Positions 8,129 through 58,507 of a stretch of DNA of 64,000 nt are shown one piece after another. This DNA is from a virus (lineage: Duplodnaviria; Caudoviricetes). Made by a program: the position numbers and the translations under genes. The stretch spans positions 2,430 through 66,429 of IMG/VR virus record IMGVR_UViG_3300005683_000047; one strand, written 5' to 3'. The notes below the pieces were generated by a model. The model was not told where the DNA came from and did no database searches. It saw nothing but the letters and a program-made list of their open reading frames with translations. How positions within the stretch are numbered: the stretch's first letter is position 1; the number at the start of each line of letters is the position of its first letter.

Positions 8129-8149
8129 AAGATCACCTTTACATAGGTA

Positions 8150-27945: not shown

Positions 27946-28251
27946 TTAAAACTTAATGAATGATGGAATTTTCTGTCGTTTTTGCACCTCTTCTTTGATT
28001 TCTTGTTGCGTGGGTCGCCAACCAGAATACCATCTTTCTAAATTTTGATCTGCCCACTTTAGTGCACAAGACCGACAACAGTTTTTCGTCCTATGAAATT
28101 CAACATCATCATTATCTCGTAACAATAAATCACAAACATTACAATTCACCGGAACTGGATGGATTGATTTCTGAGGCAGAATTACGTAATATCCGTGTTT
28201 ACTAACACGTATCATTCTATCATTGAAATACTCTTGCCATTCTTCACTCAT
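27946..28251 (-). CDS. Small Zn-binding hypothetical protein (101 aa)
   Basis: CNVC...CCRSC; WRP motif. Confidence 0.55.
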   Translation of the reverse strand: MSEEWQEYFNDRMIRVSKHGYYVILPQKSIHPVPVNCNVCDLLLRDNDDVEFHRTKNCCRSCALKWADQNLERWYSGWRPTQQEIKEEVQKRQKIPSFIKF

Positions 28252-33335: not shown

Positions 33336-35684
33336 TTAAAAATCCATTCGTGTTTTTATTAAAAACTTTTCAGTGGTTCTTTTTACCAACGGTTGAACAA
33401 GTTGAGTTTTCATGACAACGTTTAGGTTCTCATCATGTATATTGACATTTGTCACATAACAAAACTTTTGATCTGGATAATCACTATTAAATGATGCTGA
33501 CACGGGAATATATGTTGGATTGCTTGATGAATTCAATGTGTTTGAATTTACAAGAATGTTAAATTTCAACGTATGAATATTTTGTTCACCCTTGAATTCA
33601 AGTTCAAATGAATCTTTTCCAAAGAACGGAATTTCAGGTGTTTTAATTAACACCATCCCTTCATTGTAAAAAACATTGCCAACAGAGTTCCAATGTGATT
33701 GTGACGTATGACAATCGGCTCTGTACAGGTTTCCGTATCCGTCATCACGTAACGTTATCTTGATTTTTCCATCAGAACCTGATACAGAAAGATCTGAGAT
33801 TGAAAACGAACCCGGCTTAATTCTATTCCCGTAAAACAAGTTTGAAATATCGAAAAGAACAACTTCGTTTGATGAAGGATCACGAGTTCTTTGGTAAATT
33901 GTTAAAGTCTCACCAGGATCAACACCATAATTTTCAGGTGTTGGACCTGTGATATACTGAAAAAACGATCCAGTTTCAGTAGCAACGGTTTTAACAACTA
34001 CGTTTTCTGGAATTAAATTGTCTAAATTAATCAGACTGCTGTCAGGTGCTCCTATTCCATCAACATATTTTTCAAATTTGCCTGTATCAATCAGATCAAA
34101 ATTTGGATAGAAGTTTCCATCATCACATGGTAAAACAGTTAGATTACGTTTTCTAACAGCAGGATTCATATAAAAGTGATCGTTTGCTAACGTTGCTGAC
34201 GTTGTTGTGTTTATCTCACTAGCTGTCAAATGTAACCATCGACCGAAGTTCTTTGTTGCAAGATCCATCCCAAAATTTTCAAGATTCATATAGTGTGCAT
34301 CAACACCAAATGATAACGCAACGTTAAACGGATCTTTAGTTGTTCCATTTACCGCAAAAAATGGCGTCTGTAACACGCCACCAAAATCTTTGACAAAGCT
34401 TCTTGTTGGTGACTGTTGGGTGAAAAATGGTGGCAAATAAAACAACGTGTCATTTAAGTCTTTATAGCTATTTCCAGAACTTGACACGATAAAATCTTCT
34501 GTCGCAAAAAACTCGTTAATCGCAAGGTTATGAACTTCAGCATTCAAAGGATGTCGAAAGAAGAAATCATCTGGCTCGTTAAAGTATTCCAACGTTGTTA
34601 ATAACGGAAGACCTTCACGTGTGGCAGGATCAGCAGCAAAAAATATTGCTTGAGCATCAAACTCTTTGTTCTGACCCTCGTAATAATTTCCAACACATAA
34701 TACGTCTGGGTTGCCATTTATAGGGAATTGTTTTGGTGCTATTGTAGATGATGGAATGTTAAACGTACCTTTAACGTTGCCATCAATATAAAAGCTTCCC
34801 GTACCATCATTTATCTTGTTTGTTCCCCAGGTGACAATAACATGATGCCAATGATTCCTACGTAAAGAGTTGTCATCAGACATAAACACTAAATCTTTAG
34901 GATACACACCATGTGTTGCAAGATGTGGTGGAATATCTGCGCTATGAGACAACTGTAACATCATCCTAAACCCATCAACGTACCCATTCAAATCTTTCAA
35001 AGATCCAGTGATAAGAGACACAGCATATGTTGATGAAAGATGAAAAATAGTGCCAGCTTTAAAATCTGAACCAGGACTATCGTTTTTGTATCTTGGATTT
35101 ATGTAAAAATCAAAAGAAAAAGCACCAGTTGTCATATATGATCCACTGGCTCTTCCAGAACCAGGAATTTCAGACGTCGATGCATATAACAAGACGCTTG
35201 AAGACGGAACGTTAGATGACGTAAAAAAGTTTAAGCTATGATAGTTTGTGTAAGCGTAATTATATGAAGGACAAGTCGCACGATAATACGGCATCAACTG
35301 ATCTTTTATGATGATTTTTCTAACTGTATCTTTTGAATAATTTACAGTCGGAGTGCAACGATTGACTTCAACAAATTTCTGTTTTCTTGCTGCTAGACCT
35401 TGTTCTGATACGCCGCTCATATACTTTTCTAAAGAATCATGAACGTTGCAACCTGGTGTTGTTTTTGAAACAATGTCATGTAACATCGTGTCAAGATTTG
35501 CATCGTTTTTAGTGTACTCAACAAAACTAGGTTGAGGTTGAGTTTCTTTTTCAGAATTTGATCTACGAGCAAAAACGTAAACAGAACCCGTCAAACCACT
35601 ACTTGATGACGCAAAATATCTTCGAGGATGTGTAACCATCGTAAATGTTTCAATGTCATCAGAAGATATTTTTTGAATTGTCAT
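33336..35684 (-). CDS. Putative baseplate/tail protein with LamG-like domain (782 aa; start moved to the ATG at 35684)
   Basis: FSFDFYINP...WHHVIVTWG...SFYIDG (LamG-like). N-terminal KISSDDIET and C-terminal SSNPTY...YVTNVNIHDENLNVVMKTQLVQPLVK are shared with the adjacent 412-aa ORF. Confidence 0.55.
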   Translation of the reverse strand: MTIQKISSDDIETFTMVTHPRRYFASSSSGLTGSVYVFARRSNSEKETQPQPSFVEYTKNDANLDTMLHDIVSKTTPGCNVHDSLEKYMSGVSEQGLAARKQKFVEVNRCTPTVNYSKDTVRKIIIKDQLMPYYRATCPSYNYAYTNYHSLNFFTSSNVPSSSVLLYASTSEIPGSGRASGSYMTTGAFSFDFYINPRYKNDSPGSDFKAGTIFHLSSTYAVSLITGSLKDLNGYVDGFRMMLQLSHSADIPPHLATHGVYPKDLVFMSDDNSLRRNHWHHVIVTWGTNKINDGTGSFYIDGNVKGTFNIPSSTIAPKQFPINGNPDVLCVGNYYEGQNKEFDAQAIFFAADPATREGLPLLTTLEYFNEPDDFFFRHPLNAEVHNLAINEFFATEDFIVSSSGNSYKDLNDTLFYLPPFFTQQSPTRSFVKDFGGVLQTPFFAVNGTTKDPFNVALSFGVDAHYMNLENFGMDLATKNFGRWLHLTASEINTTTSATLANDHFYMNPAVRKRNLTVLPCDDGNFYPNFDLIDTGKFEKYVDGIGAPDSSLINLDNLIPENVVVKTVATETGSFFQYITGPTPENYGVDPGETLTIYQRTRDPSSNEVVLFDISNLFYGNRIKPGSFSISDLSVSGSDGKIKITLRDDGYGNLYRADCHTSQSHWNSVGNVFYNEGMVLIKTPEIPFFGKDSFELEFKGEQNIHTLKFNILVNSNTLNSSSNPTYIPVSASFNSDYPDQKFCYVTNVNIHDENLNVVMKTQLVQPLVKRTTEKFLIKTRMDF

Positions 35685-35865
35685 TTGTCCTACAACATAA
35701 ATAACATCAGTACAACATAGCATGAAAATAAGGTGGAATTATGACAAATTGTATAATTCACACTAAGTGTGATTAGAGTGACTTTGATTAGTGTTGGATG
35801 GATTCAGTGTCAAAGACATGAAAACGGTCCATATCACACTTTAGGTAATAACTTACGTTTAAACA

Positions 35866-43651: not shown

Positions 43652-46090
43652 TTAATCACCCAAAACAACAGAGTTTGTTCTAACTTCAAGACCAACGTTG
43701 TAATCAACAAAAACAGGCGTTATCACATAAAAAACTTCACCAATATCATGATGAGAAATTTTATGTATAAAATGAAAGTTTTTACGATCAAAAAATGCAT
43801 GAGACTTGCCAACAATTTTTCTTTGTCCTGCAAATTCAATTGCAATCACAAAATGATCAATTTTATATGATGATCCATTAATCTTCCATTTGATTACGTT
43901 TACATTCTTTGTAAACTCTTCAACAGAAGCATCAATCATGTATGTATTGTCAATTGAAAATTCTACATCTGTCGATATGGTATTTCCAACATTTCCAAAA
44001 CTCATCTGTTGCTTTGGATAGTGAGAACTTAACGTTTGAGGCGTCGTTAAGTTTCCTCTTGTTAGAGTTATCGGATGTAAGAACTTAAATGGACTGTAAG
44101 TGTACGGCTTTTTTGTCGTTGGATCGATTGCATTTTTAACAAACGTTTCAATCATCGTTTCCGCAGATCGAATTAATGACGTCACTTCGTATCTATATTT
44201 GTGATCAATACGTAATTCTGAAACATTATTCAAATTTCTATATCTCAAATCTGAAAATTCGCCACCGGTCAAAATACCAAAATCTTCAGTTTGACCAGTA
44301 GTAAGATTTGTCCTAGATACTTGGTATGCCAACAACTTCTGTAATTTCTCTCTGTCGTTTAACATTTCATCAGAAAACAAATCTATCAAATTTTGTTTTT
44401 CAAGTAACGTTTTCACAACATCTAGATCTGATTCATTGATTGTTGATGAAACACTAAATCTTACGTCAATAACGTTTGCATCATATATGATTTGTAGATT
44501 TTCAATTTTTGTTTCAATTGCATTCGACTGTATTGGCACATACTCAATTATTGAATTTCCAGATCGAGCGCATAAACCATTTTTGTAAATCAACTTACAC
44601 ACATACTCGTAACAATGCTCTTTTTTAACATTTGAATCGACAACAACGTATGTTGCATTTGAATCATTTGAATTAATTTGTATTGTATCACCTACAATGG
44701 AATACTCTCTATCAAACAATGTACGATTGCGTCTTAATACACTAATTGAAACAATGTTGACAGGAACATCTCTCATCTCAACAGAGATACCATTATCAAC
44801 AATTTTTGTCGTCAATGAAACAAACGATATTCTATTTTGAACAAGTCTCGGTGGAATCACCACGTTTGTATATTCAGAGCTAATCACAGCATCAGGGCCG
44901 ACTGACACAACACGATAAATCGTTGAATTTTTACTTGAAATGTCAACTGGAATTGTCAGTATTCCCGCATGTTTTTCAAGACTATAGTCACCAACAAACA
45001 CATAATCATCATTATCGTTAGTTACATACGAAAAGTTTTTACGATATATTTTTATCGATTTTGCTGCATGATCATTTTGTTTTATTTGCAAGTTTGCTTT
45101 AGTTGATGATTCATACTTTGCAAAATTAACGCTCGGTGGTATTATTGGTGTGTTGTATACGTCTATGAATTTTGTTAGTTCAATTTCTTTTTGAATTGTT
45201 TGAACAATGATGCCAACGTTGTTCAATAGTTCAAACTTAATAAACAATTGTTTGAATTGTCCTGAACTGTCTTTTAGTAATGACGACAGCAATTTAAGAC
45301 TTGTCGTTATTGATATTTGATCATTTACAACACTAGAATACGTTAGAATATTCTTGTTGTCAATCATATTTTGTGTTGACGTTGTGTCAAATATCGTAGA
45401 AGGAATAGTCACCTTACTAAAGTAAGAACTTGCGTTAAGATCAGTAATATCGTCAAAGCGTTTTCCAGCAACAAATCTTTGAGTTCCGTTCGTTGATTCA
45501 TATGTTGTCAACGTCTGATCACGAGTTTCATAAACATGTGAAGGATCTATTCCTCGTAAAATAGCACTTTGAACTAAATGTTTTATTGGCGTTTGCGAAT
45601 CAACGACGTCTTTTAAATTAACTTGCAAAACAGGTTGTGGATCATTTTCATTTTTTAGCTCATCAGTTGATTTGATGACTAACTTACGTTTTACTAACGA
45701 TGAAATTTCTCTTAATGGCTTTTTTCTTAAAACGTCTCCAACAATTTCATTGTTAATTTTCTTTGTGTTATCACTAATCGTCGATGCAATGACTGACAAT
45801 TCATTGTTTTTAATGGCAGCTCTGGCATTTGCCGCCATGTTTAAAATGTTTTTTACGATATTTGACGGTGATTGAGATGATAGTTTACCATAAAGAATGT
45901 TTTGAGTTTGAATCACCTTTGTGACAGCTGAAACTCTGACTGTCAAGGCATTTTTTTGTATAACATCAGATTGATTGATCTTATAATCAACTTCAATCGT
46001 AATATCATCATTGTCGTTGATGTTGACAATAGAAAAAAAGTTGTCTGGGATTGACACGTAATTGTTATACTGCGGTAAATTTACAAACAT
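43652..46090 (-). CDS. Putative baseplate protein with FN3/Ig-like repeats (812 aa)
   Basis: IKIYRK...IYRVVSVG; VLRRNR...VVDSNVKKEHCYEYVC; YQVSRTNL...FSDLRY...HKYRYEV. Confidence 0.45.
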   Translation of the reverse strand: MFVNLPQYNNYVSIPDNFFSIVNINDNDDITIEVDYKINQSDVIQKNALTVRVSAVTKVIQTQNILYGKLSSQSPSNIVKNILNMAANARAAIKNNELSVIASTISDNTKKINNEIVGDVLRKKPLREISSLVKRKLVIKSTDELKNENDPQPVLQVNLKDVVDSQTPIKHLVQSAILRGIDPSHVYETRDQTLTTYESTNGTQRFVAGKRFDDITDLNASSYFSKVTIPSTIFDTTSTQNMIDNKNILTYSSVVNDQISITTSLKLLSSLLKDSSGQFKQLFIKFELLNNVGIIVQTIQKEIELTKFIDVYNTPIIPPSVNFAKYESSTKANLQIKQNDHAAKSIKIYRKNFSYVTNDNDDYVFVGDYSLEKHAGILTIPVDISSKNSTIYRVVSVGPDAVISSEYTNVVIPPRLVQNRISFVSLTTKIVDNGISVEMRDVPVNIVSISVLRRNRTLFDREYSIVGDTIQINSNDSNATYVVVDSNVKKEHCYEYVCKLIYKNGLCARSGNSIIEYVPIQSNAIETKIENLQIIYDANVIDVRFSVSSTINESDLDVVKTLLEKQNLIDLFSDEMLNDREKLQKLLAYQVSRTNLTTGQTEDFGILTGGEFSDLRYRNLNNVSELRIDHKYRYEVTSLIRSAETMIETFVKNAIDPTTKKPYTYSPFKFLHPITLTRGNLTTPQTLSSHYPKQQMSFGNVGNTISTDVEFSIDNTYMIDASVEEFTKNVNVIKWKINGSSYKIDHFVIAIEFAGQRKIVGKSHAFFDRKNFHFIHKISHHDIGEVFYVITPVFVDYNVGLEVRTNSVVLGD

Positions 46091-46093
46091 GTT

Positions 46094-47056
46094 TCACTCA
46101 AAAATTATCGTAAAAATCTTTACAAATGTATGAGAACCAAAATCATCAACAAAAACTTTACCTGCAAACAAAACATGTTTATCTGAGTTTCTAGGATCGT
46201 CAGATTTGAATTTGCCAAAATCAATTACATCAAGTTTTGATATTTGATTGTTCGATAATTCAAAAATTTGACACGCTATATTATTCTCTATGCTTGTAGG
46301 ATCAAACGTTATTTGTGATAAGTTTCCCTTGTTTTGTGAAATCAAAACTTGCTTTTCAATCTCATCATATTGAAGTTGTTTGTCAGAACCCAATCTAGAA
46401 TAACTTCCAAGTCGATAATTTTCTATAGCATCAACGTTAGTTATTTCAACGTTTTTAGGCAACAAATTGATTGGTGGGAGATACTGAAAATTTGGCAACC
46501 TTGATAAACAAGGATCGTTAAAAAAACTATCTAGTTCATTAATGTTTGCATTTTGCAAACTTACATCTTTGATGGGATTGTCATTTGTTATTTTGAAATT
46601 GACGTTCAAATCACTTAACAAAAACTGTTCGTCCTCAAAAATTGAATCAACAGTTCCAATCGTTTGAAGATTTCTGAAGCTTGATAACGTTGAACCCAAT
46701 AAAAAATCTGCTGTGCTAGCAAATTCTTCACCAATGAGTGTTTGCGCGTTTGTGTCTGAACCACTAAAGATCAAACCATTGTAAACTGTAATTCCCTCTT
46801 GATTTTTAAACGGTTGCAATTTGCCTGCATCATCAGTTTCAAACGTTATTTGATCTTGAGGTAAATTGCAACATTCAAAAAACAATCGATTTGACGCGTC
46901 ACTTGATCCACTAACAACATCTGCTTCATAGAACGTTGCGCAATCAGAAAATGTCACGTATTTTGCAACGAATTTACCTGTTGACATCTGACGGCGACCT
47001 TCATAGGTCACAATTGAGTCAAGAATTCTTTGTCGATTATTGAGTATTCCACTCAT
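46094..47056 (-). CDS. Putative baseplate protein (320 aa), paralog of 37186..37902
   Basis: MSGILNNRQRILDSIVTYEGRRQM...YVTFSD versus MGMLDGTSNNIILDTVLTDTGRQFL...KFALGD. Confidence 0.45.
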   Translation of the reverse strand: MSGILNNRQRILDSIVTYEGRRQMSTGKFVAKYVTFSDCATFYEADVVSGSSDASNRLFFECCNLPQDQITFETDDAGKLQPFKNQEGITVYNGLIFSGSDTNAQTLIGEEFASTADFLLGSTLSSFRNLQTIGTVDSIFEDEQFLLSDLNVNFKITNDNPIKDVSLQNANINELDSFFNDPCLSRLPNFQYLPPINLLPKNVEITNVDAIENYRLGSYSRLGSDKQLQYDEIEKQVLISQNKGNLSQITFDPTSIENNIACQIFELSNNQISKLDVIDFGKFKSDDPRNSDKHVLFAGKVFVDDFGSHTFVKIFTIIFE

Positions 47057-47084: not shown

Positions 47085-47351
47085 TCAAACCTTTTTGGGT
47101 TTTTGCAACATATGTGTATAAATTTTGCGATACCTGTTTGGGTCTAAATTATATTCAATCCCAGGAGGTGATGGAATGAATTCTGGAACTGGCAAATCAA
47201 AAAACTTTGTGACATCAGCAAAACCTGCCATTGAAAATCCAAAATCATCATCAACCATGACGCTAATTTCACATCCCCTAAAGTCAGGAGAGTTTCTAGA
47301 AATTGATCCAGTAACTTGATATGGACTAAATATTAATGCACTAAAACCCAT
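47085..47351 (-). CDS. Small array-associated protein s2 (88 aa; start moved to the ATG at 47351)
   Basis: C-terminal PSPPGIEYNLDPNRYRKIYT, similar to s1. Confidence 0.5.
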   Translation of the reverse strand: MGFSALIFSPYQVTGSISRNSPDFRGCEISVMVDDDFGFSMAGFADVTKFFDLPVPEFIPSPPGIEYNLDPNRYRKIYTHMLQKPKKV

Positions 47352-48678
47352 ATTTGATAAACCTGTGACCATCTCGTGACAGTGATTTTCCCATGCCTTT
47401 ATACGATGGTGACCATGGCACAGCTAATTTTATAGCATTCCGTTGTGTCGGACCTAACACACAAAAAGTTCCACTGTTAATTGTTGCATTAGTTGCAATA
47501 CCTGATACAAACTTGACAAATGTTATCTCTCCTGCTAAATGCCATCGTTTATACAATGAAATATCATTGCCACCCGAGGTACCGCTGGCTTCAAGCAACA
47601 TCACAGGAATATTAAACATTGCATATTCACCTGAAGTCGAAGGTTGATGTCTGTTTATGAGATCTGGAATACTGGACGTGTTCATCATGTATGACATCGT
47701 GTCAACTGCAACACCAACAACTTTTTTTGATTGTGGATCAACGATCCCGCCATTTGACCAGACTTTAGGAGAACTACTTTGACCATCGTATTGTAAATTT
47801 GCTAAATTGATTGAACCAAATGGAAAATTTGGTTTGGCGTAGTATCCTATGGAATTTCCATCAACACAATTATCTTCACACACACTTTGTGCAAAGCAAA
47901 CATATGGCGCACGATAAACATCATTTTTCAGTTTATGCGAATATTTGCCAAAGTACACAAAATTAAATGCACCGATGTTGCCTACATCAACTGCAGCAAA
48001 AAAATTCTCATAATCAAACACAAAGTGTGCTCTGCTGTTTTTTGTGTATGTTGTATTCACGTATCCAGATGAAACACCAAATTTTGGATTTGACGTCAAA
48101 GCATCAGCTGACACAAGTTGAATCATCGCATTTCCGTCAGCACTATGAACGCCAAATTCTGAGTTTGTCCTTGGAAAAATCGTAGATTCATCTATATACC
48201 ACATCGTTCCTGACAAACCTTTATCATCTCTACCTTGATTTAAGGTTGTTCCCGTCCATGGACAGTGTTTATCAAATCTCAGAGCAAATGATAATCCAAG
48301 ACCGTTTTCAATTTGATTACTCATCGTAGCATAATAACTGCCACTACCGAATCTATGATGACCAGACGCTTGCATATGCACATAAAATGGAACAGACGCA
48401 CTTTTAAACATAAAAGTTGCCCAGGCATTTTCGCCAGATGGTGTTGAAGAGTCCCAGTAATCCATTCCAATACATTTACTTGTTAAATTCGATCCAGTGT
48501 TGTACGATATTCGTTCAATTCCAAATAATTTTGCATCATCACTATTCAGCACATTAAAAAGTGAAATAAAAACTTCATTTGCTGCGTAAAATTTGTATCG
48601 TGAAGAATCAACGTTATATCCTCCACCGTCAATATGACAATCAATTGCACCAAAATATCGTGGTTTTAACGTTTCCAT
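47341..48678 (-). CDS. Array paralog P1 (445 aa; start moved to the ATG at 48678)
   Basis: GENAWATFMFKSASVPFY; PWTGTT; FPRTN; YFGKY; AVPWS. Confidence 0.75.
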   Translation of the reverse strand: METLKPRYFGAIDCHIDGGGYNVDSSRYKFYAANEVFISLFNVLNSDDAKLFGIERISYNTGSNLTSKCIGMDYWDSSTPSGENAWATFMFKSASVPFYVHMQASGHHRFGSGSYYATMSNQIENGLGLSFALRFDKHCPWTGTTLNQGRDDKGLSGTMWYIDESTIFPRTNSEFGVHSADGNAMIQLVSADALTSNPKFGVSSGYVNTTYTKNSRAHFVFDYENFFAAVDVGNIGAFNFVYFGKYSHKLKNDVYRAPYVCFAQSVCEDNCVDGNSIGYYAKPNFPFGSINLANLQYDGQSSSPKVWSNGGIVDPQSKKVVGVAVDTMSYMMNTSSIPDLINRHQPSTSGEYAMFNIPVMLLEASGTSGGNDISLYKRWHLAGEITFVKFVSGIATNATINSGTFCVLGPTQRNAIKLAVPWSPSYKGMGKSLSRDGHRFIKYGF

Positions 48679-49895
48679 TGTCGGCCTTCCCGATGAAAAC
48701 ACTCACCAACTTGTGTCATAGAATCCCAAGGAATCACCCATTGCATAAAGTTTTCATACATATAACCAGAATATGTTTGTGATATTGAATCATTAGAACC
48801 ACCAAGTGCAAGCCAACACTTATCATCGCTTAAAGAATTTGTTCCTAACCCTTGCGAAATTCCAAAAAAATCAATTTTCCCTAAAAATCCTCGTAACGTT
48901 CCATCGTTTACTAAAACATTTATCGATCTAACGTCAAATTGTGGTTCTTCACTTATGAATGCATTAGGTTGCAATTGACTAATAAATGTCGATGCATAAA
49001 CATCAAGATTGTATGAAAAAACACCAGAACCTGCTACGTCTCCCTTAAATGACACTCCACCGTCGTATCCAGTAGTGTTGCCACCGGTGTCGAACTTTTG
49101 ATTTCCATTAGGTGAGCCAAACAAACTAGCTAGATTGAACACAGATTTTATGTCAGGATTTGATACAGAACACATCATCAAATAAGGATGATTATTTCTA
49201 GGGCCATTAGAGGGCACTGAATATTTACCAAAAAAACAAGGCAAATAAAAATCTTGTGTGCCTGGCGATGACATCATCAAAAAATTTTCCTTATCAGCCA
49301 CAAGATGAAATCTTGCTCCCTGATTGTATAAATTTGACACATTTTCTATGTTTGATTGCATGGCAAACATTGGTGTCATATTTTCACGTAACGTAGAATG
49401 CAACCCTCCTGTGGCATTTGATCTAGGAAATACAAATAACGTTGATGAACCTGATGTCCAAACTGGTGATCTTTTTACGTCCGATCCAATGGTTGATCCG
49501 CTTGAACCATTCCAAGGATTACCGCCGTTATCTAAAAATGCCACTTGCCAACCCAAAACACCACGAGGCGCATTAGAATTTGCTGCAATCAGGGCTGGTG
49601 TTCCTGGAGTCACACCAAACTGTCCAGGTTTTTCTGAATATTGAAAATGCATATAAAATGGAACAGTTGCTGAAGAAAAACAAAAAACGCTCCAAGCATT
49701 ATTTCCAAAACGTTTTGATTCATCCCAATAACCACTACCAGTTCCAGGTGACGATCCAGAACTATATGCAATTAACTTAATGCCAATTGTTCTTGCATTT
49801 GAACTTGACAAAAAATTAAAAATTCCAACATAACATTCATTCATCACATTTTGTGTCGGATAAATGTAATGATCAACTGATCCAATCAAAGTCAT
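48666..49895 (-). CDS. Array paralog P2 (409 aa)
   Basis: GNNAWSVFCFSSATVPFY; PWNGSS; FPRSN; FFGKY; VIPWD. Confidence 0.75.
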   Translation of the reverse strand: MTLIGSVDHYIYPTQNVMNECYVGIFNFLSSSNARTIGIKLIAYSSGSSPGTGSGYWDESKRFGNNAWSVFCFSSATVPFYMHFQYSEKPGQFGVTPGTPALIAANSNAPRGVLGWQVAFLDNGGNPWNGSSGSTIGSDVKRSPVWTSGSSTLFVFPRSNATGGLHSTLRENMTPMFAMQSNIENVSNLYNQGARFHLVADKENFLMMSSPGTQDFYLPCFFGKYSVPSNGPRNNHPYLMMCSVSNPDIKSVFNLASLFGSPNGNQKFDTGGNTTGYDGGVSFKGDVAGSGVFSYNLDVYASTFISQLQPNAFISEEPQFDVRSINVLVNDGTLRGFLGKIDFFGISQGLGTNSLSDDKCWLALGGSNDSISQTYSGYMYENFMQWVIPWDSMTQVGECFHREGRQWKR

Positions 49896-51091
49896 TGAAT
49901 TTTCCTGCCAGTTCTAGTTAAACCAGATCTAGGAAGTGAACCAGACCAAGGTATCACTGTTTTAATTGAACCCGATATTCCATTCCCACTCAAAACAAGT
50001 AATCCATCAGACAACGTGTTTTGAGGAACGTTATAACATAACTGATATGTTTTAAAAAATCCCAAACTTCCATAAAATCGAGGTGATTCAAATGCTACAA
50101 CGTGAGGATACAAAAGATCAAACGTAGAAGTGACATAACAAGTGTTGGGATGGAATCTAGCATCTGACATCATCAATTGCGGCACATCTAAAACAAATCC
50201 TCTAACGCCACCGTTCTTGAATGGTGACATCACTCCACCTTCTGAATCTGACGAACCACTGATGCTACCCCAAACAAATTTTGGAACGTCAACTATTTGT
50301 GGAAGAGGAAATATATCTTCTGCATTATTGTTTTGTGCTTGTTTAGGTTTATTGATACACCCATAAATTGTCACTTTCTTATTGACAGAAGATTCATGTC
50401 GTTCAATTGGACCGAACGTAAACCCATACCATGAGAACGCATCATTACCATAAAATGAAATTTCGTCCCTAGAACCAAAAATAGAAAAATAATTGTCTGA
50501 CACAAGACTTAACTTGTTTTGAGACACTAATTGCATTAAATTTTCACGACGTTGTTGATGCATTCCATTCCAACTGTTGCTTCTGGGCCAAACATATAGT
50601 TGTGAAGAATCACCCTTCCAAACCTCTGACACGTTTATGTCATTTTTTGCAAATTTAATATCATATCCATCGTTGTTTGTTGTCCCTGCCCAAGGTGATT
50701 CTTTGTCAAGACGCAAAGCAATAGCAATCCCAAGACCTCCACTTAGTGCATGATAATTGTTAACACCAGAAACTGCGTTATTCCCCCATAACATAGCAGG
50801 AAAACCCGGACCGTCTCCAATAGGAAAATCTGAACCAGTTGCGGCTTGAATCAGCACAGAAAACGGCAACTTTGCATCTTCAAAATTAAAGACTGCCCAA
50901 CAATTGTTTCCAACAGAATTAGAAGAACCACGATAGTTCATTCCAGAACCACTTGTTCCATAATTGCATGAAATTCGTTTTGTTCCGAGTGACGCTGAAT
51001 TATAATAGAAAAAATCATGAACTGTCACAAATGCGTCGAGTGACGCAGTAATATTTGATTTAATCAAAAAATCCAGCGTTGAAACCGTCAT
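49892..51091 (-). CDS. Array paralog P3 (399 aa)
   Basis: GNNCWAVFNFEDAKLPFS; PWAGTT; WPRSN; VIPWS. Confidence 0.75.
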   Translation of the reverse strand: MTVSTLDFLIKSNITASLDAFVTVHDFFYYNSASLGTKRISCNYGTSGSGMNYRGSSNSVGNNCWAVFNFEDAKLPFSVLIQAATGSDFPIGDGPGFPAMLWGNNAVSGVNNYHALSGGLGIAIALRLDKESPWAGTTNNDGYDIKFAKNDINVSEVWKGDSSQLYVWPRSNSWNGMHQQRRENLMQLVSQNKLSLVSDNYFSIFGSRDEISFYGNDAFSWYGFTFGPIERHESSVNKKVTIYGCINKPKQAQNNNAEDIFPLPQIVDVPKFVWGSISGSSDSEGGVMSPFKNGGVRGFVLDVPQLMMSDARFHPNTCYVTSTFDLLYPHVVAFESPRFYGSLGFFKTYQLCYNVPQNTLSDGLLVLSGNGISGSIKTVIPWSGSLPRSGLTRTGRKIQ

Positions 51092-51438
51092 TTTTTTTGT
51101 CTGCTTCTTTGTCTAAAAAACGTGTATGTTTTTCTAAAACGTGTAGGTTCTAACACATACGTTTCTTCTGGTTGTGGTAACCATATTAATTCATACGTCA
51201 CAGGTGATTCGTTAATTTGAAACTGCGTTAGATTTTGAAAATGTTCAAATTCTGTAGACACATCATTGAACGTAAACCCATTTTCAACTCTATTGATTGG
51301 ACCATGTGAAACAAACGATCCAGAACAACTGGGATCTAATTCATAATCAACGACATCATATGTTGGTGTTTCTGGGTGAAAACTTCCAGTTGAATTAATG
51401 GCAACAACACCAACATCGAATGCTAAAAACGTTGCCAT
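51088..51438 (-). CDS. Small array-associated protein s1 (116 aa)
   Basis: C-terminal LPQPEETYVLEPTRFRKTYT, similar to s2. Confidence 0.55.
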   Translation of the reverse strand: MATFLAFDVGVVAINSTGSFHPETPTYDVVDYELDPSCSGSFVSHGPINRVENGFTFNDVSTEFEHFQNLTQFQINESPVTYELIWLPQPEETYVLEPTRFRKTYTFFRQRSRQKK

Positions 51439-51442
51439 TCAA

Positions 51443-52627
51443 TTAAAATTGTCTTCCGTATCGATCTGCACTCTGACCAGGCGATGACGTGCCATCCCAA
51501 GGAACAACCATTTTAATTGTTGCATGAGTTGCATTTCCAAACACAGCACGTAAACGATTTACGTCCGTTGCATGTGATGGAAGACCAAAACACATATGAA
51601 AAAAACTCATTCTTCCTAAAAATCCAAATGTCGGTGCTTCGTTTAATCCAACCATCATAGGATATGTGTCGTATTTTGCTTCGTAAAAACCAGAGTTAGG
51701 ATGAAAACGTTGATCACCCAAAAAGTTTGGCATCAAATCAAGACTACAACCTCTAACACCATATGGAACACCTGGTGCCCCTGGAAGGGGGTAGATAATT
51801 CCTCCTTCTTGAGTTGGGTTACTACCTGATGTTGACCCATAAATAATCGAGACACCATACTGAGGTAATGGTGTGTTCACTTGATCAGCAGTTGAAATAC
51901 AAACATGTGGTGGTAAACTTGAAGTTATGTCAGGTCTACGATCATATTTACCGTAATAAAACATCGTATACGAACCATCGTAGTTTATGTCACCTAGAGC
52001 CAAAAAATTGTTTTCATCAAGTAGATAGTGAACTCTGGCACCAGAATACTTTATAGAAGTCGTGTCACCAGTCTTGTTGTATAAAAATCCAATGCAATTC
52101 TCTTTGTTTGTGAAATGATTGCCTCCAGCATTGTTACTTCTTGGAAATACAAACAATCTGGATCCACCATCGACCCATACAGGCGTTCCCTTTGTATCTC
52201 TGCCGTTATTGTTTGTGGTGCCATTCCATGGATTGCCGCCGTCTTCACGAACTGCAACGCTGAATCCTATTCCACCACCATTTGGATCTTGCCAGTTTGT
52301 GTTAGAACCCATTAAAACACCTGGTGCGCCAGAACCAGTACCAAACGTTCCATTACTCCACTGAGTCATCATATAAAATGGAACTGACGCTGAAGCAAAT
52401 CTATAAACTGCCCATGCATTATTTCCAACAGGATTTGGCATGTCCCACCAGTTAAGACCAGTTCCAGTTGAACCTGTGTGATACGCAATTCTTTCGACAC
52501 CAGAATCAATCGCATAAGTACTGGTTAGAAAATTACATAACGCTGAAAACGCTTCGCTGATAGGAATTTGAGTGTTTACGTTGCCACCACCCAAAATTCT
52601 ATGATCGATTGAACCATGTATAGTCAT
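51443..52627 (-). CDS. Array paralog P4 (394 aa)
   Basis: GNNAWAVYRFASASVPFY; PWNGTT; FPRSN; YYGKY; VVPWD. Confidence 0.75.
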   Translation of the reverse strand: MTIHGSIDHRILGGGNVNTQIPISEAFSALCNFLTSTYAIDSGVERIAYHTGSTGTGLNWWDMPNPVGNNAWAVYRFASASVPFYMMTQWSNGTFGTGSGAPGVLMGSNTNWQDPNGGGIGFSVAVREDGGNPWNGTTNNNGRDTKGTPVWVDGGSRLFVFPRSNNAGGNHFTNKENCIGFLYNKTGDTTSIKYSGARVHYLLDENNFLALGDINYDGSYTMFYYGKYDRRPDITSSLPPHVCISTADQVNTPLPQYGVSIIYGSTSGSNPTQEGGIIYPLPGAPGVPYGVRGCSLDLMPNFLGDQRFHPNSGFYEAKYDTYPMMVGLNEAPTFGFLGRMSFFHMCFGLPSHATDVNRLRAVFGNATHATIKMVVPWDGTSSPGQSADRYGRQF

Positions 52628-52636
52628 GTAAGTTTC

Positions 52637-53965
52637 CTACAAATTCTGTGTCTCTAACATTTTAACACCTTCGCGAGTGTTTGTGTAATACGGACCTTTA
52701 TAACTAGGTGACCATGGAATCGCATATTTATATGAAGGTCCGAATGCTGGACCTATCACTAACCATTTTCCTTTTGCTAATTTAGCGTTTGTCGGTACAG
52801 AACTAACACCTCTAATAAAAGATAGTTTTCCTAACGTAATAGGTGGAATTGGGTAAAATTCTGAAGACGAATTTGTAAACTTTTCCTGCCATCCTATAGG
52901 AATTTTCATCATCTCAATACACCCGTTATTAATTGAAGTGTTATGATACATTCGTGAATTACCTTCCCCAATTGATGTTGGAAACGACGTTGCAACTTGC
53001 GTTCCGGAAGCATATCCGATGTATCCTGTCATCAATGAACCGACTGAATTTCTATTTGAATTTACAACACCGCCGTTTACAGACGCATTACCAGATTTAC
53101 CTGTGCGTGGATCTAATTGCACTATTGAATTAATAAGTTGTTTTGATCCAAATGGTGCTGATTGGCCTAAGCTTGAATAGTTCAACTTACAATCGTTTAT
53201 GCATAACATGCAATACGGTTCTGTGTTACCTGTTATATCTGACAACTTGTCATATTTTCCAAAGTAAACAACACTCATAATACCCATACCACCGATATCA
53301 AAAACACCTATAAATTGATCATTTGAAACAACATAATGAAAGATTCCACGCTTCGAATAAAAATATTCGTTATTTCCATTACTGTAACTCGCTTCAAATC
53401 CAGTAACAGTTGCAAGACTCACCATTCCAGACTTAGTTGAATCATCTTCACCACCGTAACTGTTAACTCTGGGAAAACACATTAAATTTGAGCTATCACC
53501 TTCCCACACTGGTGTTGATTTAACGTCTAACCCATTATTAAATGTTGTGCCGCGCCAAGGAGACGATAAATCATTTGTAAATGCAAATGAAAAAGCTAAC
53601 CCAACTCTAGAAGAGTCTGAAATCGATCCAGGATTTCCAGGAGAACTACCAAATTGTAATCGACCAGAATATTGAACTAACATGCAAAAAGGAACAGACG
53701 CACTTGCAAATTTAAAACATGCCCAAGCATTCTCTCCAGCTGGTGTGGAAGAGTCCCAATATCCCATTCCAGAACCATTAAATCCAAAATTAGACGCAAT
53801 TCTAGTTATTCCTAAAGAAGCACATTCTGAACCTGTCAAAAAATTATGTAACGAAATAAACGATTCATTTAATTCTTGATAACCATTGAATCCCGTATAA
53901 TTTTCGCTTGCATTTCCATCGATATAAACATCTGCTAAAATTGCATACGTTGTTTGTATTGGCAT
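52637..53965 (-). CDS. Array paralog P5 (442 aa)
   Basis: GENAWACFKFASASVPFC; PWRGTT; FPRVN; YFGKY; AIPWS. Confidence 0.75.
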   Translation of the reverse strand: MPIQTTYAILADVYIDGNASENYTGFNGYQELNESFISLHNFLTGSECASLGITRIASNFGFNGSGMGYWDSSTPAGENAWACFKFASASVPFCMLVQYSGRLQFGSSPGNPGSISDSSRVGLAFSFAFTNDLSSPWRGTTFNNGLDVKSTPVWEGDSSNLMCFPRVNSYGGEDDSTKSGMVSLATVTGFEASYSNGNNEYFYSKRGIFHYVVSNDQFIGVFDIGGMGIMSVVYFGKYDKLSDITGNTEPYCMLCINDCKLNYSSLGQSAPFGSKQLINSIVQLDPRTGKSGNASVNGGVVNSNRNSVGSLMTGYIGYASGTQVATSFPTSIGEGNSRMYHNTSINNGCIEMMKIPIGWQEKFTNSSSEFYPIPPITLGKLSFIRGVSSVPTNAKLAKGKWLVIGPAFGPSYKYAIPWSPSYKGPYYTNTREGVKMLETQNL

Positions 53966-55218
53966 TATTCACTCCTGATGAATTGAACGCCTTCTTTGCC
54001 AAAATACGTTCCTGGAGATTTTGCACTTGAATCCCAGGGTATCACTATTCCTGGGTGTGATTCAGGAGTTGACATATCAATGACACTGCCTCCTGGAAGG
54101 AATGCCCATTTGCCATTGTTAAACGTTGATTGTGAAGGGACTTCACTGACAAATTTAAAGAAATCAACAAATCCAGCGACGCCATAATATGGCGATTCAG
54201 CCACTAACAAAAATACATTTGCAGGATTAAACGTTGACATTGGTTTATTTGCAACTAAATTTGGGTGTGCGTTCCAATTTTTTGCCATCATGTACCAATC
54301 AACGTTCATCGTTTTTACTAATCCTGTACTTCCACTCTTGAACGCAATTCCGCCGTCGCCACCCCAAGTTGAAAACCCTAAACCATTAATTCCACCATAT
54401 AAACCATTTGATACAGCATTACCACCGCCGTAATCATAAATTTCAGACATTGCTGCAAGTGAATTGCAGAATGACGTTGACACGTTACTAATTGATGCTA
54501 ACGTAAGTGGACTATTATTTGACGCAATTGCAATATATTTACCAATCCAATGGAAATAATGCATTCTAATTCCAGAACCTAGTTCATGAAAAATTGCAAA
54601 ATTGTTTTGATCAGCAATAAAATGCACACCAACATCATGAATTCCATACCAATACATTGGTTGAGTGTTTGCAATTGCATTTACCTTCACAGACATCATT
54701 GCTTGTTTTGTTGAATTACTTGCACCGCCAAGATTATTTTGTCGTGGAAAGCAATATGATGAAGTGTTCCATACAGGATTACCTTTTACGTCATTGCCAT
54801 TTGCAAAAGAAGTTCCATTCCATGCATTACCACCGTCTTCCAGAGCAGCTCCGGCGAATGCAAACATACCATTTGATGATGCGATTGGTGTTGTTGCTGG
54901 ATTTCCTGGAGTTGAACCAAATGTAACAGACGGTTCTGAACTTTGAATTAGCACATAAAATGGATTCGTGGCAGATGAAAATCTAAAGCATGCCCAAGCA
55001 TTTGAACCAACTGAACTCTGTAAAACAGACCCAGAATAATAATTGGGATAGTTTATCGCACCACTTACGATAGAACCAGTGTTATACGCAACTAAATTAA
55101 TGCCCAATTCTTTACAATTTGAGCCTGACAAAAATTTATATGCAGCAACGAACATTGACGTTGCTTGAAAGTCATCAGGATAAAATCTATGATTTACAGA
55201 ACCAGCAAATTTTCGCAT
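53965..55218 (-). CDS. Array paralog P6 (417 aa)
   Basis: GSNAWACFRFSSATNPFY; AWNGTS; FPRQN; WIGKY; VIPWD. Confidence 0.75.
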   Translation of the reverse strand: MRKFAGSVNHRFYPDDFQATSMFVAAYKFLSGSNCKELGINLVAYNTGSIVSGAINYPNYYSGSVLQSSVGSNAWACFRFSSATNPFYVLIQSSEPSVTFGSTPGNPATTPIASSNGMFAFAGAALEDGGNAWNGTSFANGNDVKGNPVWNTSSYCFPRQNNLGGASNSTKQAMMSVKVNAIANTQPMYWYGIHDVGVHFIADQNNFAIFHELGSGIRMHYFHWIGKYIAIASNNSPLTLASISNVSTSFCNSLAAMSEIYDYGGGNAVSNGLYGGINGLGFSTWGGDGGIAFKSGSTGLVKTMNVDWYMMAKNWNAHPNLVANKPMSTFNPANVFLLVAESPYYGVAGFVDFFKFVSEVPSQSTFNNGKWAFLPGGSVIDMSTPESHPGIVIPWDSSAKSPGTYFGKEGVQFIRSE

Positions 55219-55219
55219 T

Positions 55220-56704
55220 TCACAATTTTACTCCCTGCAATGTTCCTGTTGACGGTGAAACAGTTGACCATGGAAGAATTGCTTTTATAGTGTATTTTAC
55301 TGAATTGCCAAAAGCAGCTCTGCTAAAGTCTGGCGTCGAATCAAGCGTATTAACTTGCATGGCGGCACCCCACCAATTAACGTATCCAATCGTGCCAAAA
55401 CATTTTGGATATTCCCACGCAATAACGCTAGGAGACCACACGTCAATTCTTGGTGTGCCCGAAGAACCAAACATTGAATTTGGCCAATATGGCGTATTAA
55501 AATCTTCATAATATGCTCTATAAAAAAGACCAGCAGGTAAGTCAAAAACAAAACCTTTAACGCCAGATTTTTCTCGAGTTGTGTTAGACCTCAAAGAACC
55601 AGAAAAAACGGCAAGACCACCTTCAAGTATTGTTGAACCACTGATGCTTCCATAAACGGGAGGATTTAACGTACTATATAGACCTACGCCAAATCCTAAA
55701 TCAAGATGTTCAAAAATCCAACCAGCAGAAAATTTATTTGCGCACAAATACGTGTAATCACCATGTGAATATTGAACACCAGAACCAGTGTAAATCATAG
55801 ATTTTCCAAAATAGAAGAAATCATATGAATTATCACTGCCAACGTCATTTAAAATTGCTAAATTATTCTCGTCAAACAAACAATGCCCAGAAACACCAAA
55901 ATTTCTAACATCAGATCTTAACAACAAAGGCATCAAATTGTTACGATTTGTTTGATGTAATCCTCCAGGATTGTTACTACGAGGCCACAAGTAGACACTA
56001 CTTGTTACGTCCCAATATGAAGATGATGATAGGCCAGTCCAAGGATTTCCTCCGTTAGACATTTGTCCCACAGCGATTCCTAACCCACCTTCAGTGGGAT
56101 TGTTTTGACCCCATAACGTTAGATTTGAACCAGAATACGCATTTGCTGGTGATCCAAAATGAAACAACCCGACGTAAAATGGAATTGATGCTGATGCAAA
56201 TTTCCATACTGAGAATGCATTTGTATTTACTGAATACCAAACAGTCCATTCAGTGCCTGCAATAAACTGTTGATCAGGAAATTTACCAAATATTCCATCG
56301 CCAAATGACGTTCCCGAAATTAACGGTATGAGATTTGTAAGTGGGTATGTTACTCCATTGTCATACGATAATGAAAATCTAGCAACTGAAAATCCAACGC
56401 CAGAATGATCTGAAGGAAATCCAGTCGTAGTTATTCTTATTTTGTAAAATCGATATGCATCAATAGTTTGTGTACCTGAAATAACAAAATTTGTTGGCGT
56501 GTTTATAGAAAACAACCAATTTGAAAAACTTTCAGTAGACAACACACTACCAGTGACAAATTGGACGCCTGCAGAAGAACCACTTGTCAATGCATCAGTT
56601 ATATGTTTGTAAACAAGGTACGACCCACTACTCGGCCCACGAGCAACATTAAAATTGTCTCGTGGGTCTGGTAGAATCTTGTAATTTACTTTTCCTTTAA
56701 GCAC
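55220..56704 (-). CDS. Array paralog P7 (494 aa, GTG start, extra N-terminal insert)
   Basis: TNAFSVWKFASASIPFY; PWTGLS; WPRSN; YFGKS; ILPWS. Confidence 0.72.
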   Translation of the reverse strand: MLKGKVNYKILPDPRDNFNVARGPSSGSYLVYKHITDALTSGSSAGVQFVTGSVLSTESFSNWLFSINTPTNFVISGTQTIDAYRFYKIRITTTGFPSDHSGVGFSVARFSLSYDNGVTYPLTNLIPLISGTSFGDGIFGKFPDQQFIAGTEWTVWYSVNTNAFSVWKFASASIPFYVGLFHFGSPANAYSGSNLTLWGQNNPTEGGLGIAVGQMSNGGNPWTGLSSSSYWDVTSSVYLWPRSNNPGGLHQTNRNNLMPLLLRSDVRNFGVSGHCLFDENNLAILNDVGSDNSYDFFYFGKSMIYTGSGVQYSHGDYTYLCANKFSAGWIFEHLDLGFGVGLYSTLNPPVYGSISGSTILEGGLAVFSGSLRSNTTREKSGVKGFVFDLPAGLFYRAYYEDFNTPYWPNSMFGSSGTPRIDVWSPSVIAWEYPKCFGTIGYVNWWGAAMQVNTLDSTPDFSRAAFGNSVKYTIKAILPWSTVSPSTGTLQGVKL

Positions 56705-56713
56705 TACAATTTC

Positions 56714-58507
56714 TCATAGAATTTGGCTTGCTAAAGTCGCAAGTTGTGAGCGCTCCCCTTTCACTAACGTGACGTGCCCTGCTATGGCATAATCCTTGAA
56801 TTTTTCTACAGCATACGTCAAACCATTTGTGAAAACATCAACATGTGTGTTATCAATTTGCTCGATATCTCCAGTCAAAATGATCTTTGTATTGTCACCG
56901 ACTCTAGTAATAATCGTCTTCAATTCGTGTATTGACAAGTTTTGTGCTTCATCAATGATGATAAAAGAATTTGGAATTGAACGACCACGCATATAGGTGA
57001 CAGCTTCAATTTCAATAATACCCTTTTCAAACAACATGTCAATGTAAGGATCACTTTTGAAAGTCTTTGTACCTTCATTATCCTTCGACACTTTTTGAAA
57101 CTTCTTGCCTGCACTCTTGAACAAGTAACCAAGATTATCTCGTATCGGAGCAATCCATGGTTCCATTTTCTCTTCTTTTGTTCCAGGCAAAAATCCGATG
57201 TCCTTACCGACAGCTTGAACAGGTCGAGTTATGACAAGTCGATCATATTTCTTCTTTTCAAGAACAAGTTCTAGGCCAGCTGCCACAGATAAAAGCGTCT
57301 TGCCACAATTATGACTTACAACACCATTTGTATAATAAGAGTGATCATCATGTCCTATTGATAGATCATATACACGTTGATTTCCTATGTTTTCAATGTT
57401 CAAGATTTTGCTATCACCAGAATCTGTTTGAAATTCAGTAGAATCTAACAATTGCATATCATTGACAATTTGATCAATTCTGATCCAATCACCATTAAAC
57501 AATCTAATCATGTGATCATTTGAACAACGAAGCTTTTTACCGTTTTCAAATGTCACATCATAGCACTTTTTAATTCCCTGATCAAGAAAATTTGTAATTT
57601 GTTGATAACCAACTGGTGAATTTGCGTATACAACATTATCTTTCAACAATTTGTCAATTTCAATAATTTTGACATTCATAGAAGGATTGTCATTAACCTT
57701 AATTGAAACAATCGTATCTTCTGTCACACAACCAGCTTTGCCTGTAAAAGTTACTAATTTGATGGAATCATCAAAAATCAAGTCCAGCGCAAATTGCTGT
57801 TCTTTGTTTCTTGGCGTCAATCCAAAGACAGATGTTTTGTTTTCGATCTTACGAATCGGCACACCAACATCAATATATCGTGCAAGTGCAGACTTGCTTT
57901 CTGGTTTGTCTTTTATCACCAAAATTTCATTTGGGTGTAACTCTGGATGATCAGAAAGTAGAGGTGAAAGCGTTACAGGTTTTCCTTCGTAAAAGTTATC
58001 AATTTCTTCCGTTGATAACGTGATTCTTGAAACACCACTGTAAAGTTGTTCTTTTTCAGAACAAACACGTAGCTTTTTATAATCTTCACTTTCAACACCC
58101 AATGCATCGCATTTCAAACGAACGTTGATATCATTCGAAACAACAACACAAGGAAGATGACATGTGGTTCTGTAGTACGCATACGCAATGATAACATTGT
58201 CAATTTTGTACTTTGTTCTTAGCTCAACTGGAAGCTTGGCAAATACGTCTTCTGCTGTCGGAACGATTTTTAGAGTCCCGCCTCCAGGAGTAGCTATTCC
58301 CTCATTGAGACTTCCTTGACTACGCATTTGATCTAGTTGTCTACTTACGGTTCTTGCGTTTTGTCCGACCTCATCTTGACGACTTTTGATGTTATCAAGT
58401 TCTTCTAAAACAACCATCGGAATTATCAAGTCGTTATCATCAAACGCATGTAATGCATTAGTATCGCTAAGAAGCACGTTAGTATCTAAAACGAATGTTT
58501 TTTTCAT
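56714..58507 (-). CDS. phoH: PIN-PhoH family ATPase (PhoH2/YlaK-type) precursor with an intein; 456 aa spliced
   Basis: PIN motifs FVLDTNVLL, VVLEELD, DNVII, SNDINVR; PRNKEQ; spliced Walker A GKAGCGKT; GFLPGTKEEKMEPW; YMRGRSI; IIIDEAQN; GDIEQID. Confidence 0.93.
   Translation of the reverse strand: MKKTFVLDTNVLLSDTNALHAFDDNDLIIPMVVLEELDNIKSRQDEVGQNARTVSRQLDQMRSQGSLNEGIATPGGGTLKIVPTAEDVFAKLPVELRTKYKIDNVIIAYAYYRTTCHLPCVVVSNDINVRLKCDALGVESEDYKKLRVCSEKEQLYSGVSRITLSTEEIDNFYEGKPVTLSPLLSDHPELHPNEILVIKDKPESKSALARYIDVGVPIRKIENKTSVFGLTPRNKEQQFALDLIFDDSIKLVTFTGKAGCVTEDTIVSIKVNDNPSMNVKIIEIDKLLKDNVVYANSPVGYQQITNFLDQGIKKCYDVTFENGKKLRCSNDHMIRLFNGDWIRIDQIVNDMQLLDSTEFQTDSGDSKILNIENIGNQRVYDLSIGHDDHSYYTNGVVSHNCGKTLLSVAAGLELVLEKKKYDRLVITRPVQAVGKDIGFLPGTKEEKMEPWIAPIRDNLGYLFKSAGKKFQKVSKDNEGTKTFKSDPYIDMLFEKGIIEIEAVTYMRGRSIPNSFIIIDEAQNLSIHELKTIITRVGDNTKIILTGDIEQIDNTHVDVFTNGLTYAVEKFKDYAIAGHVTLVKGERSQLATLASQIL
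57308..57730 (-). mobile_element. PhoH mini-intein (141 aa) inserted in the P-loop
   Basis: CVTEDTIV; CSNDHMI; VYDLSIG...YYTNGVVSHN with +1 Cys. Confidence 0.92.

Follow-up and report, generated by a model that had tools for sequence, protein, structure and literature searches.

The stretch of DNA analysed here, hereafter the window, comprises 64,000 nucleotides (nt; positions 2,430 to 66,429) of the 66.4-kb IMG/VR virus record IMGVR_UViG_3300005683_000047, the completeness of which was put by CheckV at 18%. It contains a tandem array of seven diverged paralogous genes (p1 to p7), one product of which, p4, yields a predicted structure that matches gp47 and gp48, the proteins forming the tail fibres of Pseudomonas phage JBD30. 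We consider it moderately probable that the array is a lineage-specific expansion of a gene for a gp47/gp48-like fibre subunit, with products forming a hetero-oligomeric tail or baseplate appendage of fixed composition. This reading draws on the match in fold, on how the solved relatives behave, on the tail modules in which single-copy relatives and the corresponding genes of Bacillus phage 0305phi8-36 are found, and on the tight packing of the array and the ordered retention of its paralogs.

An earlier reading of the window made without database searches (the sequence-only reading) had described seven head-to-tail open reading frames (ORFs) of 394–494 amino acids (aa) at 47341–56704. All seven were recovered at these limits, on the minus strand. 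Together with their boundaries and two small ORFs, they are as follows:

56714..58507, minus strand: PIN-PhoH gene, the upstream boundary of the array (Pfam PhoH, E 6e-45; PIN_4, E 4e-28).
55220..56704, minus strand: p1, paralog of 494 aa, first in the array (ORF, alignment; profile E 3e-122), with a divergent N-terminal region and an insertion of ~100 aa.
53965..55218, minus strand: p2, paralog of 417 aa; its closest relative within the window is p6.
52637..53965, minus strand: p3, paralog of 442 aa; its closest relative within the window is p7.
51443..52627, minus strand: p4, paralog of 394 aa, the copy nearest to the family consensus and to the single-copy relatives, and the protein modelled.
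51088..51438, minus strand: s1, small protein of 116 aa dividing the array, with the C-terminal motif R[FY][RHQ]K.Y[TS].
49892..51091, minus strand: p5, paralog of 399 aa (ORF, alignment, profile match); its best pairwise identities are with p1 and p4, 35% each.
48666..49895, minus strand: p6, paralog of 409 aa (ORF, alignment, profile match).
47341..48702, minus strand: p7, paralog of 453 aa from a GTG start; an in-frame ATG at 48678 would give 445 aa.
47085..47372, minus strand: s2, small protein of 95 aa closing the array, a paralog of s1 with the same C-terminal motif.
46094..47056, minus strand: gene for a conserved 320-aa protein, next after the array; orthologs follow the arrays of two related contigs, L014 and L015.

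The seven proteins share a global pairwise identity of 27–37% over ~400 residues, BLASTP comparisons between paralog lineages gave E values of 1e-26 to 1e-47, and a family profile search of the whole record returned exactly seven matches, p1 to p7 (E 1e-122 to 1e-163). Their common ancestry, which had been proposed from shared motifs, is thus far beyond chance. Every motif of that proposal is present in the alignment: N-terminal G[SA][IV][DN]H, G.NAW..F.F.SA..PFY, PW.G[TS], [FW]PR.N, H[FY]..D..NF, [YF]GKY and C-terminal [IV]PW. The richness in G, S, N and T (34–39% in sum) and in aromatic residues (F+W+Y, 13–16%) was likewise recovered, and the impression of a conserved scaffold with variable loops was borne out by an alignment of 121 sequences, in which predicted coil has ~3 times the frequency of insertions and deletions seen in strands and helices. 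Across the family, the N-terminal half (p4 residues 41–180) is conserved most strongly, with a second peak at the C-terminal [IV]PW motif; variation is greatest in the C-terminal half and the loops. The most conserved stretch is a coil (p4 residues 128–170) rich in W, N, G, D, K and R, with W134 invariant and G130, G136, G142, K146, W151, P162, R163, N165 and G169 nearly so.

The structure of p4 was predicted with AlphaFold2 from the 121-sequence alignment, giving a single compact, mostly beta globular domain with one long N-terminal helix (predicted local distance difference test score, pLDDT, 94.1; predicted template modelling score 0.94). This model superseded a poor first one built from the seven sequences only (pLDDT 54), which already ranked the same top two Foldseek matches, both of them chains of PDB entry 8rk3. 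In an exhaustive VIA-align search of 48,161 PDB representatives, the best match was the JBD30 baseplate chain 8rk3_c (Z 18.8, root-mean-square deviation 4.0 Å), with 264 of 317 residues aligned to model residues 4–378; the runner-up reached Z 3.9, and a second run agreed. Foldseek returned 8rk3_K (E 2.7e-6) and 8rk3_G (E 2.7e-4) and nothing else below E 0.1. Since the matched chains were assigned by length to gp47 (318 aa) and gp48 (307 aa), the comparison that the sequence-only reading had recommended, AlphaFold followed by Foldseek, gave a confident fold whose only strong match is JBD30 gp47, then gp48.

The proteins gp47 and gp48 are termed "tail-fibre-forming proteins" (PDB 8rk3; Valentova et al. 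2024, PMC11445458). JBD30 bears three lateral "bent arm" tail fibres, each built of three gp47-gp48 heterodimers in which the two folds are similar, and its baseplate arms embrace and bind the type IV pilus (PMC11445458). The two genes, JBD30_047 and JBD30_048, are adjacent and lie between the tape measure and distal tail protein genes. The JBD30 authors suggested that gp47 is a hydrolase of the nitrilase superfamily (PMC11445458); as a Pfam search found no family in gp47 or gp48, this nitrilase (CN-hydrolase) suggestion was not reproduced. No nitrilase/CN-hydrolase fold was present among the VIA-align or Foldseek matches of the p4 model, an absence from the listings that does not exclude one.

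The fold also occurs in other phages. Foldseek against BFVD gave 22 matches at E<=1e-3 (E from 1e-7), including proteins annotated as "virion structural protein" in Xanthomonas phage FoX4 and Burkholderia phage KL1, gp371 of phage G, two proteins of the 490-kb Agrobacterium phage Atu_ph07, a protein of Acidovorax phage ACP17 and several proteins of one uncultured myovirus. In addition, three proteins of Bacillus phage 0305phi8-36 (A7KUT2-4) were matched (E 5e-4 to 2e-3; TM, the template modelling score, 0.49–0.57 on the target), and these were assigned to gp158, gp159 and gp160 from their lengths (293, 270 and 267 aa) and the order of the accessions. The genes for gp158 to gp160 stand in tandem in the baseplate/fibre module, and all three products are virion proteins verified by mass spectrometry. 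The JBD30 pair and the 0305phi8-36 trio show that tail modules with a few tandem genes for this fold have been recorded before, a structure being available for JBD30 only. The array had been called the best candidate for an undescribed system in the window, which is too strong a description, given that Foldseek largely assigns its fold to proteins known in sets of two (JBD30) and three (0305phi8-36).

At the sequence level, by contrast with the fold, the family was indeed unrecognised, as the sequence-only reading had held. No meaningful match to the seven proteins was found in Pfam, PHROGs or a PDB sequence-profile search, and tblastn of the paralogs against 50,697 phage records found no relative; matches to DotH and RNase T1 were dismissed as chance-level. 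A profile search of 1.84 billion cluster representatives identified 487 proteins at E<=1e-3, of which 247 reached E<=1e-30; almost all of the 487 are 370–450 aa long and match end to end. Those family matches listed with a source are metagenomic, and unnamed or "hypothetical protein". A scan of GTDB prokaryote genome contigs detected no family member, and a Pfam search of 121 family members found no hydrolase and no other family.

Related contigs were found by scans with family sub-alignments, a scan with a single protein having given no match. One of them, the 297-kb contig L041, is 92–99% identical to the window in nucleotide sequence across the genes of the array region. The gp17-type terminase of the record shares ~40% identity with its counterparts in Microcystis phage Mel-JY01 and Flavobacterium phage immuto, and the record also encodes a T4-type major head protein, portal, sheath and prohead protease; the window phage is a distant T4-like jumbo myophage, with related contigs of ~300 kb. 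Two further IMG/VR contigs, L014 and L015, each carry nine family copies between PhoH and the ortholog of the 320-aa protein, and share with the window the layout prohead protease, PhoH, array, s2-homologous small protein and 320-aa ortholog. In the tree, all nine copies of L014 pair one to one with those of L015, in the same order and with 99–100% support, at protein identities of 35–61%; copies 1, 2 and 4 are the best conserved (51–61%, the others 35–41%), compared with 58% for PhoH and 66% for the protease. The search for copy number and synteny proposed in the sequence-only reading thus gave 1, 7 or 9 copies per contig, with the two nine-copy contigs syntenic with the window.

Each window paralog was also compared with its own closest cluster representative, the identities being 35% for p1, 59% for p2 (P0006), 58% for p3 (P0005), 54–82% for p4, 41% for p5 (P0008), 64% for p6 (P0175) and 50% for p7 (P0007). 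For all but p1 these values are well above the level between paralogs. In comparison with L041, the ratio of nonsynonymous to synonymous differences per site (pN/pS) was 0.03–0.14 for the six paralogs without insertions or deletions and 0.02–0.03 for neighbouring genes, which indicates purifying selection, with no measured paralog decaying. The separate ortholog lineages and the low pN/pS together indicate that all copies are functional and individually maintained. The synonymous divergence from L041 (pS) was uneven along the array, at 0.28 for p2 (92.4% nucleotide identity), 0.05 for p5 (98.5%) and 0.02 for s2 (99.7%), a pattern that may point to recombination in the array between related phages.

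Another six contigs, of which one measures 241 kb, carry a single family copy; a single copy is thus the commoner state among the contigs sampled, and the big arrays are found in the PhoH-linked lineage. The single-copy protein of L016 (the same contig as L048) is 38% identical to p4. At five of the six loci (L048, L049, L051, L053 and L054) the family gene abuts a gene with a common repeat domain; the matches of this domain are to phrog_972 (tail fibre proximal subunit), phrog_8510 (virion structural protein) or phrog_347. L051 also has a baseplate wedge gene (phrog_6, E 4e-21) on the same strand and in the same gene row, 5.6 kb upstream of the family gene. A phmmer search of the neighbouring proteins of the single-copy loci against the window gave no match.

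Within the window array, p2 groups with p6 (93/93 support) and p3 with p7 (99/97), the highest pairwise identity of p1 is with p5 (35%), and s1 and s2 are homologous (E 1e-5). The simplest reading is an old segmental duplication that gave rise to [p1 p2 p3 p4 s1][p5 p6 p7 s2], p4 being either an addition to the first block or a copy that the second has lost. The tree also contains lineage-specific duplications that occurred independently in the two branches, p3/p7 in the window and p5/p6 in L014 and L015.

The genes of the array are tightly packed, with junctions consisting of a 1-nt gap, a 1-nt overlap, a 9-nt gap, 4-nt overlaps and a 37-nt overlap. The array had been presented as unbroken; the seven genes and their tight junctions stand, but their contiguity does not, since s1 is located between p4 and p5 and s2 follows p7, the two small paralogous ORFs punctuating the seven paralogs in the pattern 4+1+3+1. 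The start of p1 is 9 nt past the PhoH stop codon, and the earlier observation that no ATAnTTA motif intervenes was correct, none being present on the coding strand between 47334 and 59266. In the whole window this motif is not enriched overall (31 observed, 45.6 expected from shuffles) and is biased towards the coding (minus) strand (24 of 31); one copy lies 7 nt upstream of the start of the 320-aa gene. The tight junctions (from 37-nt overlap to 9-nt gap) and the coding-strand region free of ATAnTTA fit one transcription unit, and the array genes are probably co-transcribed with PhoH. A scan for sigma-70 promoters and terminators gave hits at chance level only.

From these observations a probable route to the present array can be outlined. 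A single-subunit ancestor gene would have been expanded by tandem and segmental duplication in the lineage of the window phage, a sister lineage reaching nine copies. The copies would be non-redundant subunits that are made together and co-assemble into a tail or baseplate appendage of fixed composition, with the better-conserved N-terminal half serving as assembly scaffold and the variable C-terminal half and loops facing outward, toward the host surface. The small proteins s1 and s2 would probably help in assembly or provide the ends or adaptors of two sub-blocks. A more specific version, which we put forward only tentatively, is a heteropolymer of seven to nine different gp47/gp48-like subunits in fixed positions, possibly colinear with gene order, in which the small motif-bearing proteins delimit or cap sub-assemblies and which was derived by duplication from a single-subunit ancestor.

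Comparison with the known systems shows both likeness and difference. The JBD30 proteins resemble those of the window in a globular, beta-rich fold that matches the p4 model over the whole chain, and in being products of adjacent, diverged paralogs, which in JBD30 form heterodimers making up lateral baseplate arms that touch the host. However, they have no detectable sequence similarity to the window proteins and are shorter (307–318 aa, as against 394–494 aa with extra loops), and there are two paralogs rather than seven to nine in the window clade. Moreover, JBD30 is a 37-kb Mu-like siphophage and not a ~300-kb T4-like myophage, its genes lie between those for the tape measure and the distal tail protein whereas the window array lies between PhoH and genes of no recognised family, and the window array is punctuated by small accessory ORFs. 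The 0305phi8-36 proteins are likewise tandem paralogs of the same fold, three in number, found in the virion of a jumbo myophage, but they are 267–293 aa long, are present in three copies only and share no sequence similarity with the window family.

Several tail appendage genes in a row are also known from large myophages with branched tailspike systems, such as CBA120 and Rak2-like phages, in which these genes jointly widen or define host recognition. In such systems the proteins are trimers, either tailspikes or fibres, that carry enzymatic beta-helix domains and short adaptor modules at the N-terminus, whereas each window copy is a full-length homolog of one globular fold. Compared with a classical trimeric fibre or tailspike, conservation in the window family is not confined to an N-terminal anchor, as it covers p4 residues 41–180 as well as the C-terminal [IV]PW. 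No trimeric fibre or tailspike fold was found among the Foldseek or VIA-align matches of the p4 model, which does not exclude one.

The sequence-only reading had offered two hypotheses, a hetero-oligomeric appendage with fixed subunits, which is favoured by the fold, by the one-to-one fixed order in the sister contigs and by the separate ortholog lineages, and an interchangeable repertoire, which is disfavoured. According to the latter, the paralogs would be independent receptor-binding or host-interacting modules, each forming a homo-oligomeric appendage or decoration of its own, with different surface targets and a wider host range as the outcome. The combination of conserved scaffold, variable loops and a C-terminal half that varies more does resemble that of binding proteins, copy number varies by lineage, duplications such as p3/p7 in the window and p5/p6 in L014/L015 are lineage-specific, JBD30 gp47 and gp48 themselves bind a host structure, the pilus, and the uneven pS of the paralogs (0.05 to 0.28) could reflect cassette recombination. 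On the other hand, nine-for-nine orthology in identical order between L014 and L015, at identities as low as 35% and no higher than 61%, argues against turnover and interchangeability, as does the existence of a separate ortholog lineage for each window paralog; the low pN/pS gives no sign of diversifying selection at so crude a level; and in the one relative whose structure is solved, a single fibre has the two paralogs as obligate partners. We regard a repertoire of this kind as unlikely.

Still less probable, in our judgement, is a role outside the tail, with the paralogs being capsid decoration or internal proteins, or non-virion proteins such as host-envelope enzymes, that share an old beta-rich fold. 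The position of the array downstream of the prohead protease and PhoH, the hydrolase proposal made for gp47 by the JBD30 authors, and the conserved coil at p4 residues 128–170, in which the nearly invariant K146, R163 and N165 could belong to an active or ligand-binding site, are in keeping with such a role. However, gp47, gp48 and the 121 family members contain no Pfam hydrolase or other family, no enzyme fold scored above Z 4, every relative by fold with an experimentally determined location belongs to the virion, in a tail or baseplate context, others are annotated as virion structural proteins, and the single-copy relatives reside among fibre and baseplate-like genes. As tandem duplicates are common in jumbo phage genomes, the array might also be redundant, without organised function and with some copies being lost; but the seven frames are intact, pN/pS is low, and the paralogs are old (27–37% identity) and each has orthologs elsewhere, so that this explanation is very improbable and close to refuted.

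Several points nevertheless weigh against the appendage of fixed composition that we favour. A comparison of the family with gp47 by hhalign gave a probability of 1.3%, and the family profile matched nothing in the JBD30 and 0305phi8-36 records (for JBD30 at E<=10); with no link in sequence to gp47/gp48 or gp158–160, the case for homology depends on one predicted model and one solved entry. The array adjoins PhoH and the prohead protease and not recognised tail genes. The genes downstream had been termed a baseplate-like block, a description that found no support, as searches of PHROGs, of Pfam and, with phmmer and profiles, of PDB, as well as record-wide searches for Baseplate_J and gp25, were all empty, and no sequence method matched the large downstream genes (320, 812, 1238 and 620 aa) to baseplate or fibre proteins. 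Conserved order and purifying selection would be expected equally of seven independent, non-interacting useful proteins. Finally, whereas the paralogy, the match in fold, the conserved order, the purifying selection and the synteny are observed, we infer the virion location of the paralogs in the window phage, their hetero-assembly, and what the loops and the small proteins do.

The small proteins that punctuate the arrays have a basic C-terminal motif, R[FY][RHQ]K.Y[TS], as their sole common feature. It ends both s1 and s2 (e.g. NRFRKTYTH), and in L014 and L015 a small ORF with this C-terminus occurs after copy 2 and again after copy 9. The motif scan located these ORFs as follows:

L014, ~8100-8290: motif-bearing small ORF.
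L014, 18145-18699: motif-bearing small ORF.
L015, 8040-8300: motif-bearing small ORF.
L015, 18683-19228: motif-bearing small ORF.

The s2-homologous proteins that close the nine-copy arrays are 181–184 aa long. The motif was detected in no other ORF of the ten loci examined, nor in the single-copy loci. The 320-aa protein follows the array in all three multi-copy loci, its orthologs directly after the L014 and L015 arrays being 34–47% identical to it. It has at least 496 metagenomic homologs, on contigs of up to 357 kb, of which the 120 listed are mostly 42–57% identical, and it belongs to the well-conserved core genes of a large clade of uncultured phages; no match to it was found in Pfam, PHROG, PDB or the ESM Atlas, nor in cultured phages by tblastn. 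The next gene encodes an 812-aa protein (43652-46090, minus strand) with ~20 metagenomic homologs of equal length. For this protein the ESM Atlas gave only weak fibronectin-III/Ig-like leads (feature score 0.90, structural TM <=0.30), and no family could be assigned from PHROGs, Pfam, PDB profiles or a PHROGs search with the homolog set.

On the other side of the array, the PhoH protein is fused to an N-terminal PIN domain (PF13638, residues 5–144). Its orthologs directly precede the L014 and L015 arrays and are 450–466 aa long, compared with 597 aa in the window. The window gene contains a 420-nt in-frame insertion (140 aa, ~57307-57726) that is absent from L041, with flanks 96% and 88% identical, and residues 277–347 give a sub-threshold Pfam match to Intein_splicing (27.9 bits, cut-off 35.8). 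This looks like the presence/absence polymorphism of a mini-intein between near-identical phages. Two other genes of the window are worth recording. A 1050-aa ORF (28244-31396, minus strand) combines an SbcD-like nuclease (phrog_100, residues 1–365) with an SbcC-like ATPase (phrog_77, residues 295–1049) and appears to be a fused gp47/gp46-type nuclease. A 795-aa protein (33336-35723, minus strand) contains a Laminin_G_3 (concanavalin-like lectin) domain that scores 28.9 bits against a Pfam cut-off of 27.6, and such a domain would suit a surface or fibre protein.

Globular fibre subunits of the gp47/gp48 type, encoded by adjacent paralogs, are already known, having been described in 2024. What is new here is a large unannotated family, its link to the gp47/gp48 fold, the seven- and nine-gene arrays of fixed order, the small ORFs that punctuate them and the restriction of these arrays to an uncultured jumbo phage clade. 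Fibres built by stacking globular heterodimers first came to light in 2024, in one small siphophage. The present locus, with a sequence family of 487 cluster representatives at 50% identity that is absent from both Pfam and PHROGs, suggests that this principle of construction occurs widely, and the arrays suggest that in giant phages it can be elaborated far beyond two subunits. If assembly were confirmed, the sets of 1, 2, 3, 7 and 9 paralogs would form a natural series for studying how a homo-oligomer is converted by duplication into an ordered hetero-oligomer, a gene block that cannot otherwise be annotated would receive a functional label in many huge-phage genomes, and the scaffold with its variable loops would become a candidate host-recognition surface for phages of unidentified hosts. 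Should the tentative heteropolymer be true, it would be a fibre of "beads in fixed order" and would differ from the trimeric fibres and tailspikes to which most present knowledge relates.

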